Below, piece by piece: positions 6,833-8,999 of a stretch of 64,000 nucleotides of DNA. Source of the stretch: Escherichia phage vB_EcoM_ASO1A; the sequence record MZ726791.1. The stretch is one strand, 5' to 3'. A program made the position numbers and the translations under genes. Numbering within the stretch: the first letter of the stretch is position 1; every line of letters starts with the position of its first letter. Below the pieces are notes generated by a model, which searched no databases, was not told where the DNA came from, and worked only from the letters and a program-made list of their open reading frames with translations.

Positions 6833-7618
6833 ATGGGTATTGTAAAAATCATCAATGGTGATATCTTTGCTGCATTTGATAAAGGTAAGTTTGACATCAT
6901 TGGTCATGGTTGTAACTGCATGAACCTAATGGGCGCAGGTATCGCTGACAAGATTTCTAAACTTTACCCAAAAGCATATGAGACCGATACAGAAGTTTAT
7001 CTCTATGCAGGTGGTATAGGTCACAAACCCTGTGAGAATTTACTAGGTAATTTCTCTGTAGCACGCTTAAAACAAGGTCGTATAGCTAACCTTTACACTC
7101 AGCTTAAGACTGGTAAAGATGCCCGATACAGTGCTTTAGAGTCATCTTTGAAGCAACTTAACAGATACTGTGAAGTTAATCAGTTGAAGAAAGTTGGTTT
7201 ACCTATGATTGGTGCAGGTATCGGTGGACTTGACCCTCAAGCCGTCACAGTTATCATCAATCAGGTGATGAAGAGTGTAGATGTTTATCTATATGTCTAT
7301 GAAGGAGAGATGTACCACAAGTTACTCTCAGGTTGGAAGAACTACTGTGAACCAGAATACTTTGCAGGTGTAGCAGTGTTCACAGATAACGCAGTTACCC
7401 TCTTCAGACGAAGAAAAGGTAAGATACATCAAAGTAACCCTCCGGTTGAAAAGATGTCTCTAAGTAACGCTCTAGTTACCCACCTGTCAAAGAGCAATCA
7501 CAGAATTGCTGTAACATTTGGTAGTGATGCAGAAGCTTATATCTATGCAAGAACTGATGAGGATATTGAGGCAATCTTCTCTTCACCAGAAGTTACCTTC
7601 TTAGACGCAAAGAACTAA
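6833..7618 (+). CDS. macro-domain protein (ADP-ribose binding/hydrolase-like)
   Basis: NGDIF...DIIGHGCNCMNLMGAGIA and LPMIGAGIGGL segments match macro-domain signature pattern (GDIT...NAAN...GGGV; FPAISTGxYG). Confidence 0.55.
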   Translation: MGIVKIINGDIFAAFDKGKFDIIGHGCNCMNLMGAGIADKISKLYPKAYETDTEVYLYAGGIGHKPCENLLGNFSVARLKQGRIANLYTQLKTGKDARYSALESSLKQLNRYCEVNQLKKVGLPMIGAGIGGLDPQAVTVIINQVMKSVDVYLYVYEGEMYHKLLSGWKNYCEPEYFAGVAVFTDNAVTLFRRRKGKIHQSNPPVEKMSLSNALVTHLSKSNHRIAVTFGSDAEAYIYARTDEDIEAIFSSPEVTFLDAKN

Positions 7619-7679
7619 GAAACTCTGTAGGATATTCACAATAGCCTAAGCCTTTCTTATCTGGTAAATTTTTCAGGTA

Positions 7680-7880
7680 AGGAGGGCTTTTTCATTTCAG
7701 ATTTGTGCAGGTAGAGTTCTGTAGAGAAATCTATAGAGAAAATTTTGAACTCCAAAGAGAAAATTCATTTTCAAACTGTGCAGGTAATCTCCAAAGAGCT
7801 TTTTCATTTTCAAAACGTGCAGACCCCGCTCAGGTCGGGCAAGAAAAATCATTTTAGAATTGTGCAGGTAGGTTTTTATA
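7680..7880. repeat. four imperfect tandem repeats (~45-55 bp) ending in TGTGCAGGTA
   Basis: Recurring TTTCATTT..N..TGTGCAGGTA units at about 7691, 7757, 7803 and 7848. Confidence 0.6.
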
Positions 7881-7888
7881 GACAGCCA

Positions 7889-7929
7889 GCCCAACCCCTC
7901 TCCCCCTCTTACTCCCCCTCTCCCAAAAA
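7889..7929. repeat. pyrimidine (C/T)-rich tract
   Basis: AGCCCAACCCCTCTCCCCCTCTTACTCCCCCTCTCCC, compositionally unlike surrounding AT-rich DNA. Confidence 0.6.
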
Positions 7930-8046
7930 GTCAAGAGAAAAATTTGTAGCGGATTGAAAAATAATTCTTGATTTGCGTTCTGTTTTGTGGTAGTCGTGCG
8001 CACCCGTTTCATTACAGTTTTGCCAAAAATATTTTTAAAATTTTTA

Positions 8047-8075
8047 TTGACTCTTTGAACGTGGTTATCTAATAT
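8047..8075 (+). promoter_or_regulatory. strong sigma70-like early promoter
   Basis: TTGACT, 17 bp spacer, TAATAT. Confidence 0.6.
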
Positions 8076-8079
8076 TTAC

Positions 8080-8138
8080 ATCAACGGGGAGGGAATGACC
8101 TTCCCCACTAAATAAAATCCTAAACTGGAGATTCAAAA
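8080..8138 (+). promoter_or_regulatory. conserved leader cassette type A (copy 1)
   Basis: ATCAACGGGGAGGGAATGACCTTCCCCACTAAATAAA..CTAAACTGGAGATTC hairpin plus SD directly before ATG. Confidence 0.7.
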
Positions 8139-8327
8139 ATGGCATCAAGAAAAATTAAAGTTGGCGATGAGGTTAACATTAAGCACGAATACTCTTACAA
8201 AATGCTAACTATACGCTCTTATAAGGTTTATCAGGTGGAAGCTATCCACAAAGATAATACTTTTTCCTTAAAAGGGTATAGCGAACGTTTCCCTGCTGAA
8301 CTCTTTGAGAAATGGAGCGCGAAATAA
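8139..8327 (+). CDS. hypothetical early protein
   Basis: ORF directly after type A leader. Confidence 0.5.
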   Translation: MASRKIKVGDEVNIKHEYSYKMLTIRSYKVYQVEAIHKDNTFSLKGYSERFPAELFEKWSAK

Positions 8328-8533
8328 TGCTTTACAGTCGTGAATTGATGGTTACAACTAACGTTAACACAAAGGTAAAACGTTTTTACATGCAAATTTG
8401 TGGCGTATGGTCTAGAATATCAGAAGCTGACTATTGCAACTATGTAGAAACAGCTATAAACTCTAATTGCTACCTTACAAGAAATACTAAGAATTTTACA
8501 AGGCAAACAGCGATTTACTATTACGATAAATAA
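8327..8533 (+). CDS. hypothetical early protein
   Basis: ATG at 8327 with GGAG RBS inside track ORF 8312..8533. Confidence 0.4.
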   Translation: MLYSRELMVTTNVNTKVKRFYMQICGVWSRISEADYCNYVETAINSNCYLTRNTKNFTRQTAIYYYDK

Positions 8534-8620
8534 AAGTACTTTACAAGGGGCTTATAGTTCGATAAAGTAAGCCTCAGATAAAGAGCTTTACCACTCAATC
8601 CTAAATTGGAGAACTTAAAA
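8534..8620 (+). promoter_or_regulatory. conserved leader cassette type B (copy 1)
   Basis: AGTACTTTACAAGGGGCTTATAGTTCGATAAAGTAAGCC.CAGATAAAGAGCTTTACCACT..CCTAAATTGGAGA. Confidence 0.7.
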
Positions 8621-8914
8621 ATGGCTATTATCAAAAACGTTGTAATTACTGCAAAGACTCGTGATGACGCTCGCGTTATGGCTAAAAAGTTATGCGGGAA
8701 AGTGGTTGACAATGGAAAACAATCTGCTGTAAGGTGGGGCGTGAAGGTTGATAAACAGTTGAAGTTAAAAAATTCACCGATAAACCTTTTTACATGTGTA
8801 AACACTATCGGGAAGACAAATGTATACACGAAAAAGGCATACATTAGACGCGTAGCATTAACATCCCCCATTCGTACAATGAGAAGTTATGCAAAGCTGA
8901 AAATTAACAAATAA
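8621..8914 (+). CDS. hypothetical early protein
   Basis: ATG 8621 after GGAGA RBS; track start 8606 is a TTG inside the leader. Confidence 0.5.
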   Translation: MAIIKNVVITAKTRDDARVMAKKLCGKVVDNGKQSAVRWGVKVDKQLKLKNSPINLFTCVNTIGKTNVYTKKAYIRRVALTSPIRTMRSYAKLKINK

Positions 8915-8999
8915 AGTACTTTACAGGGGGCTTAAAAGCTGATACCTTAAGCCCCAGATAAAGAGCTTTACCACTAAATCCTAAACTGGAGATTCAAAA
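8915..8999 (+). promoter_or_regulatory. conserved leader cassette type B (copy 2)
   Basis: Same motif family as 8534-8620. Confidence 0.65.

Follow-up and report, generated by a model that had tools for sequence, protein, structure and literature searches.

A conserved, once-per-genome array of direct repeats in a non-coding control region of Felix O1-like phages

Four direct repeats followed by an unusually C-rich tract lie in a 520-bp gap (7619-8138) in the genome of Escherichia phage vB_EcoM_ASO1A (MZ726791.1), and the region is a non-coding control region between the operon running from rIIA to a macro-domain gene and a block of small early genes. The DNA analysed here, called the window, is the first 64 kb (64,000 nucleotides) of an 89,496-bp genome, and motif counts were extended to the whole genome. 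Annotation was taken from record MZ726792.1 (vB_EcoM_ASO1B; Ounavirinae, Felixounavirus), found by megablast, in which the coordinates are identical to those of the window. We tentatively propose, at a probability of about 0.35, that the repeats are protein-binding sites present at one locus per genome and acting on transcription where the operon and the early block meet, with the C-rich tract as a loading site for Rho. The array appears to be undescribed, while belonging to a familiar kind, the repeat arrays of phage control regions. No description of the repeats, of a replication origin or of transcript maps for this phage group was found in the searchable literature, and these are not among the direct repeats given in the genome paper on Felix O1. 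Felix O1-like phages are widely used in typing, diagnostics, biocontrol and therapy, and the array offers a signature for identifying the subfamily in metagenomes, a bait for the binding protein and a defined target for deletion.

Results

The motif TCATTTYNRANNYGTGCA has just four mismatch-free occurrences in the 89.5-kb genome, at 7692, 7765, 7804 and 7849; allowing two mismatches adds only three further sites, and the observed count was reached in none of 100 shuffles. All four copies are in one orientation, with start-to-start spacings of 73, 39 and 45 bp. Pooling of 46 copies from 12 phages defined a unit of about 37 bp, in which a G/A-rich box (GGTAAGGAGGG, ACTCCAAAGAG or GGTCGGGCAAG) is followed by five T or five A and then by TCATTTY-N5-YGTGCAG. 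Within it the bipartite core TCATTT-N6-YGTGCA is invariant, its two blocks about one helical turn apart, and the bases between and around the core vary. The first-pass annotation, made from the letters of the window, had described four imperfect tandem repeats of about 50 bp that all end alike. Four copies beyond chance are indeed present, but the unit is shorter and the spacing uneven, and only three copies end in GTGCAGGTA (GTA after the core), the third ending in GTGCAGAC. Tandem Repeats Finder, proposed there as a check, reported for the region only a 12-bp repeat in two copies and no regular tandem, the four-copy array going undetected. The repeats of the region are as follows.

7676-7713 (core 7692-7709), plus strand: unit R1, GGTAAGGAGGG-CTTTT-TCATTTCAGATTTGTGCAGGTA, with the 3' arm and T tract of the upstream terminator as its 5' half
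7718-7741, plus strand: 12-bp repeat TCTRTAGAGAAA in two copies, in the double-length gap between R1 and R2
7749-7786 (core 7765-7782), plus strand: unit R2, ACTCCAAAGAG-AAAAT-TCATTTTCAAACTGTGCAGGTA
7788-7822 (core 7804-7821), plus strand: unit R3, TCTCCAAAGAG-CTTTT-TCATTTTCAAAACGTGCAG, without the GGTA end
7833-7870 (core 7849-7866), plus strand: unit R4, GGTCGGGCAAG-AAAAA-TCATTTTAGAATTGTGCAGGTA, the copy closest to the units of Erwinia phages
8007-8022, plus strand: TTTCATTACAGTTTTG, a partial and degenerate version of the core, about 25 bp 5' of the -35 hexamer and not kept outside Felixounavirus

Comparison with relatives, in which absence of the repeats would have spoken against a regulatory array, found three or four copies in every close relative. 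All loci compared from Felixounavirus, Suspvirus and Mooglevirus have the motif at fixed positions. The gap matches 288 phage records, all of them Ounavirinae except for a few mislabelled records. Alignments covered Felixounavirus, Suspvirus, Mooglevirus and Kolesnikvirus together with 26 further unique sequences. In these the near-invariant blocks are the terminator 3' arm with R1, the units R2, R3 and R4, the segment 7926-7972, and an UP-like tract with the -35 and -10 hexamers; the spacers between units, 7872-7925 and 7973-8025 vary freely. The copies stand 77, 150, 189 and 234 bp after the macro-domain gene in 27 IMG/VR loci found through the macro-domain protein, with the exception of one contig that has the first three copies only and then runs into unrelated sequence. 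Three copies instead of four are also found in some Felixounaviruses. The Erwinia phages phiEa21-4 and MM7 carry four units in true tandem (37, 37 and 39 bp), and of the whole gap the repeats alone account for the DNA-level match to Erwinia phages. The regular Erwinia spacing suggests that the 73-bp interval of the window hides a decayed unit, and the TCTRTAGAGAAA pair between R1 and R2 may be what is left of it.

A search of IMG/VR with a two-copy pattern returned only contigs of Ounavirinae size with one locus per contig, and the same pattern in 185,579 bacterial and archaeal genomes found only six unrelated local repeats in metagenome-assembled genomes. No similar DNA was present in 5,426 complete E. 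coli genomes, and mimicry of a host element was rejected on these grounds. The array was also absent from two more distant contigs whose macro-domain protein is 41% identical.

Two observations on individual records belong here. Phages BPS17L1, VpaE1_ev035 and phiWec174 carry a variant allele with only three units and a different terminator stem, and their macro-domain gene has a different 3' end (780 vs 786 nucleotides). Within the middle unit, equivalent to about window position 7804, divergent sequence gives way to ASO1B-like sequence, which suggests recombination within the array. Record GU169904.1 (Staphylococcus phage SA1, 147 kb) is 92% identical to this Felix O1-like region at 128068-129644, and is presumably a chimeric or contaminated deposit.

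Within the gap the order is intrinsic terminator, four repeat units, C-rich mirror repeat, a 47-bp block and a sigma-70 promoter. The depositors annotated the terminator (7648-7704) and the promoter (8047-8073) in it and nothing else. The remaining elements and the flanking genes are listed below.

7648-7704, plus strand: intrinsic terminator at the end of the rIIA-to-macro-domain operon, from a terminator scan, folding and the MZ726792.1 annotation
7890-7924, plus strand: C-rich tract, 35 nucleotides with 24 C, 8 T, 3 A and no G
7926-7972, no strand assigned: A-tract-rich block AAAAGTCAAGAGAAAAATTTGTAGCGGATTGAAAAATAATTCTTGAT, 47 bp, near-invariant
8024-8075, plus strand: early promoter, with an UP-like A/T-rich tract at 8024-8046, -35 TTGACT at 8047-8052 and -10 TAATAT at 8070-8075
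6833-7618: ASO1B_011, macro-domain protein (Pfam PF01661), often annotated as 'phosphatase'
8139-8327: ASO1B_012, the first gene downstream of the gap

The C-rich tract is the most C-rich spot of the genome. The runner-up among 35-nucleotide windows has 17 C, and the binomial expectation of such a C content over all windows is about 2e-5. The first-pass annotation had called it a 40-bp pyrimidine tract with a capacity for non-B DNA; the C-richness stands well beyond chance, but the tract is 35 nucleotides long and includes three A. It contains a perfect mirror repeat, CCCTCTCCCCCTC-TTA-CTCCCCCTCTCCC, with homopyrimidine arms of 13 nucleotides (7896-7908 and 7912-7924) and TTA as the spacer, and thus belongs to the mirror repeats counted as H-DNA candidates (arms of at least about 10 nucleotides, short spacer). 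The complement has five G runs of at least three bases, and the minus strand of the tract holds the only G-quadruplex motif of the genome (four runs of three or more G, separated by 1-7 nucleotides). The resemblance to known H-DNA mirror repeats and G-quadruplexes thus lies in the mirror arms and in the minus-strand G runs, and is one of sequence criteria only. The tract folds to 0 kcal/mol, that is, with no predicted single-strand structure.

The non-B potential suggested for the tract is borne out at the level of sequence by the mirror repeat and the G-quadruplex motif. The tract is one allele of a dimorphic cassette of about 52 bp (about 7872-7925), and an alternative cassette of equal length that is not C-rich (GGTGGGTGCAGGTAGGGATGTCGCCATTTCTCACAAGGCTACCACATCC...) is found in 140 records vs 68 with the C-rich form of the ASO1B type. 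As an unrelated cassette replaces it in so many records, the tract cannot be essential and is an accessory element, dispensable or replaceable. The C-rich form is probably ancestral, since it is found in Felix O1, wV8, UAB_Phi87, Suspvirus and Mooglevirus and, in a shorter form, in Erwinia phages. In the evolved VpaE1 variant VpaE1_ev035 (LR699048.1) a 28-bp insertion within the tract (alignment columns about 310-337) duplicates part of it and creates the palindrome CTGTCTCTAGAGACAG.

The terminator has a stem of 16-17 pairs, G-U pairs included, followed by a T tract, and its 3' arm and T tract are invariant in the 26 sequences. The 47-bp block is near-invariant across Felixounavirus, Suspvirus and Mooglevirus; folding gave no significant hairpin for it, and no promoter or known motif accounts for it. 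The promoter TTGACT-N17-TAATAT (8047-8075) matches the sigma-70 consensus at 9 of 12 positions and is predicted to serve the first early transcription unit. Its TTGAC and TA..AT are invariant in the aligned relatives. This promoter, reported by the first-pass annotation as following the tract, is real, annotated and conserved, but begins 122 bp beyond it. The segment 7925-8046 is 70% A+T, and the 80-bp stretch from 8007 is 76% A+T, within the top 0.2% of the 64 kb.

Discussion

The bipartite and asymmetric core, conserved as DNA across four genera, the interchangeable T5 and A5 versions, the uniform orientation and the single locus suggest that the units are binding sites. They would be bound by one sequence-specific protein, probably encoded by the phage, and the bound array may act on transcription at the boundary by setting the extent to which RNA polymerase passes the upstream terminator in the direction of the early block. 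It could work as a roadblock or an insulator whose occupancy changes during infection. In the read-through RNA the C-rich, G-free stretch may serve as a rut-like loading site for host Rho, that is, as an accessory back-up terminator only in those phages that carry the C-rich cassette. Early transcription would start independently, from the sigma-70 promoter and the A/T-rich tract 5' of it.

We rank this role slightly first, ahead of a replication origin, because the array abuts the terminator (and overlaps it in the enterobacterial phages), because the C tract has, on the sense strand, a composition like that of Rho-loading sites and because of the timing of RNA in Felix O1. In that phage Whichard et al. 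found ORF14, an open reading frame (ORF) across the repeats, positive by reverse transcription PCR (RT-PCR), the signal being highest at 25 min, whereas for ORF13 and ORF16 on either side it was highest at 5 min (PMC3185647, Table 3 and Supplementary Table 1). RNA thus crosses the region with a timing of its own, which suggests regulated read-through.

Several points weigh against this. The RT-PCR of Felix O1 was semi-quantitative only and not strand-specific. Pfam finds no DNA-binding or Rep domain in 20 neighbouring small proteins, most of which have no Pfam match at all. The gap contains no perfect consensus for DnaA, IHF, CRP or sigma-54, with DnaA and IHF matched only at one mismatch; a palindromic match to the Fis consensus lies between R1 and R2 (7736-7750). 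Four sites are more than a roadblock seems to need. The array, which had been read as standing in front of the early block, is a conserved cis element as supposed, but it lies 176-355 bp 5' of the -35 hexamer, and no such array accompanies the block's other early promoters. About two thirds of the Felixounavirus records lack the C tract, so any role with Rho is dispensable. Finally, an iteron-like array present once per genome fits a replication origin about equally well.

Known systems resemble the proposed boundary in part. As in lambda tR1 and other rut sites, a C-rich, G-poor and unstructured stretch of the sense strand lies just past the end of an operon. There are 22 YC dinucleotides in 46 nucleotides, but the G-free stretch is only about 45 nucleotides compared with about 60-80 for rut segments, and here it stands behind a good intrinsic terminator, has no boxB-like hairpin and is missing in most relatives. 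The core CCCTCTTAC resembles the lambda boxA/rutA string CGCTCTTAC. A lambda nut-like antitermination site was rejected, no boxB-type hairpin following the boxA-like string. Boxes for MarA/SoxS, sigma-E promoters and middle promoters of the T4 MotA type were likewise set aside by eye, as spacing or the -10 element is not conserved between genera. In phage phi29 the switch from early to late transcription takes place in a region with four p4 sites between promoters A2c/A2b and A3, the sites being inverted repeats that overlap the promoters. The likeness is that of a lytic phage with an intergenic region of a few hundred bp and four spaced sites around T or A tracts, to which a small phage regulator could bind and so reprogramme the neighbouring promoters. 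In contrast to phi29, the sites here are direct repeats that abut a terminator, at the distance from the promoter given above (176-355 bp), and we know of no p4-like protein in Felix O1-like phages.

The strongest competitor of the transcriptional reading is a replication origin, in which the units would be iterons for a phage initiator and the polypyrimidine tract, the A-tract block and the promoter would aid opening of the duplex for the primase-helicase. It is nearly as plausible as the transcriptional role, and we regard it as possible but somewhat doubtful. At least three direct repeats of the same orientation at a single locus are taken as the mark of iterons, and the four conserved copies, unique in the genome, agree with this. 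The array sits in a gap that ranks among the three longest true non-coding ones of the genome, next to both the very A+T-rich promoter region and the mirror-repeat/G-quadruplex tract. Only two true non-coding gaps are longer (14666-16311 and 23593-24211); by a crude gene caller based on codon usage the gap 7619-8138 is fifth among the uncovered stretches. The phage group has a T7-like replisome with a primase-helicase (Toprim and DnaB_C by Pfam; T7 gp4-like), and no origin has been described for it in the searchable literature. T7-like origins are activated by transcription. Against an origin, T7-type origins are not known to need iterons, and the array differs from the iteron arrays of phage and plasmid origins, such as the lambda origin with its four O-protein sites, with which it shares three to four direct copies in a unique non-coding or control locus, A/T-rich flanks and purine/pyrimidine asymmetry of the strands. 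The period is 37-45 bp, at half-integral helical turns, against 17-22 bp for classical iterons and about 20-24 bp in such phage and plasmid arrays, and there is no sequence similarity to known iterons. An initiator gene was not recognised by Pfam in the 20 neighbouring proteins, and the DnaA and IHF sites are imperfect, as said above. Between array and promoter no marked unwinding element is apparent at 70% A+T (7925-8046), and the C tract is replaced in most relatives.

That the array, the mirror-repeat/G-quadruplex tract and the promoter together are the replication origin of Felix O1-like phages, or less likely a T5-like pause site for DNA entry, is a pair of possibilities that we would take seriously without expecting either. 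If true, such an origin or pause site would be the first defined once-per-genome cis element of the phage group besides the terminal repeat. Another candidate for a control or origin region is the gap at 23593-24211 (619 bp, 34% G+C), which lies between divergently oriented gene blocks.

A role at the level of RNA is improbable. The repeats in the read-through transcript would then be protein-binding or processing sites, or the region would give a non-coding RNA at middle time. RNA over the region has been detected with a time course unlike that of its neighbours, and every unit lies on the strand that is sense for the flanking genes. Against this, promoter prediction gave nothing within the array on either strand, inspection of the alignments revealed no conserved pairing, and the T5 and A5 versions of the unit alternate and are exchanged from lineage to lineage, a pattern more in keeping with duplex DNA than with RNA. 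A known RNA family was rejected, as Rfam was negative for known families, with a lone match at chance level to a CRISPR direct repeat in a coding region (E = 0.47).

It is just as improbable that the units are relics, that is, duplicated copies of the terminator tail without present function that have been kept through close kinship. The 5' half of the unit does resemble the terminator 3' arm and T tract, and the copy number varies between three and four. Nevertheless, genera that share only 64-70% identity in the macro-domain protein have invariant cores, while in the same alignments free divergence is seen in the spacers, in the cassette and in the segment ahead of the promoter, and of the whole gap only the repeats have kept a match to Erwinia phages.

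A pause site for DNA entry like the injection stop of T5 is less likely again. The array would then mark the inner edge of a first-entering end segment of about 7.5 kb with the early genes. It lies about 7.2-8 kb (about 8-9%) from the right physical end of the genome, with the entire small-gene early block between the two. The stop signal proposed for T5 consists of conserved, non-coding repeat regions where the first-step-transfer DNA has its inner edge (bioRxiv 10.1101/866236), and the likeness extends to the size of the terminal early-gene segment (about 8%) and to repeats that are more conserved than the neighbouring small genes. The T5 region is, however, about 1.2 kb long with palindromes and paired DnaA boxes, whereas the array has no perfect DnaA boxes and no sequence similarity to T5, and Felix O1-like phages are not known to inject in two steps.

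Two reading frames cross the repeats.

7745-7957, plus strand: ORF of 70 amino acids spanning R2-R4 and the C tract, unannotated in the ASO1B record and homologous to Felix O1 'ORF14'
7697-7894, minus strand: ORF of 65 amino acids spanning the repeats, versions of which are annotated as hypothetical proteins in some relatives

That one of them encodes a small repeat protein is hardly credible. ORFs of 50-130 amino acids are open here in every lineage, several were annotated by depositors, and ORF14 was positive by RT-PCR in Felix O1. The unit, however, contains no stop codon in two of its three frames on either strand, and long ORFs therefore come about automatically in an array. The copies are read in different frames, since 73 and 37 are not multiples of three, and indels of 2 and 4 nucleotides between genera break the frames. 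By codon usage the log-likelihood per codon is -0.175 for 7745-7957 and -0.09 for 7697-7894, to be compared with a mean of -0.174 (standard deviation 0.12) for nested spurious ORFs and with +0.08 to +0.34 for 15 neighbouring annotated genes. Neither ORF has a Pfam match, and the conservation of the units lacks third-position wobble. The original Felix O1 record had four overlapping ORFs in this segment, of which the re-annotation of 2010 kept one, ORF14 (8042-8254), the exact homolog of 7745-7957, and RefSeq later dropped this as well. On the grounds of codon usage, unconserved frames and the lack of Pfam matches the coding reading was rejected; these ORFs are most probably by-products of stop-poor repeats and very unlikely to be coding. 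The first-pass annotation, which took 7745-7957 to be probably non-coding, is thus borne out. Spurious ORFs produced by the repeats persist in the annotation of many records.

The least likely of all is a genome terminus or packaging recognition site at the array or the C tract: the records Andreotti, LMP34 and TH10 and three IMG/VR loci (L023, L024 and L045) do break in or beside the tract, and no small terminase has been recognised in the phage group (PMC3185647; PMC4837284), but UAB_Phi87's 608-bp direct terminal repeat, mapped by Bal31 digestion and run-off sequencing by Bardina et al. (PMC4837284), aligns at 84% identity to window positions 15128-15712, about 7.2 kb from the array, the ends of many records, about 7 kb past the array, agree with this mapped terminus, and the ends of TH10 overlap by 73 bp as in a circularised assembly. 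The isolate records that break at 7890-7924 are MN850610, MK482690 and MT446388, and the Andreotti record has hairpin-like inverted duplications at both ends. These breaks are better explained by poor coverage or by bubbles in the assembly graph at a dimorphic cassette prone to form G-quadruplexes, and the C-rich tract is thus to be regarded as a recurrent assembly breakpoint.

The position of the terminal repeat implies that the physical ends of the genome lie inside the window, where the plus-strand and minus-strand gene blocks converge. A repeat of 581 bp, from PhageTerm analysis, has been reported for a Felixounavirus (PMC8303462). The segment 15128-15712 is full of short repeats of the TGTTAAGA/CTTGTWA type.

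On the 5' side the gap is preceded by the plus-strand operon running from rIIA and rIIB to the macro-domain gene. From its 3' side to about 15.1 kb extend small plus-strand early genes interspersed with repeated promoter, terminator and leader cassettes. Two families of cassettes of 65-75 bp were seen in this block, each repeated 5-7 times at 84-98% identity. One family consists of a leader hairpin (GGGGAGGGAATGACCTTCCCC) with a ribosome-binding site and the other of a promoter-like/hairpin module. Copies lie at 8078-8143, 8527-8600, 8909-8980, 10255-10319, 10772-10839, 11306-11372, 11566-11637, 11900-11972, 12866-12932, 13432-13492, 14028-14078 and 14358-14422. These cassettes are probably the 57-bp and 39-bp direct repeats that have been listed for Felix O1. 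In MN850644 (ekra), KT184315, KT184314, MN850633 and MN850580, compared against window positions 8139-8600, about 470 bp of extra DNA stand between the first early gene and position 8600, and probably represent one additional small gene.

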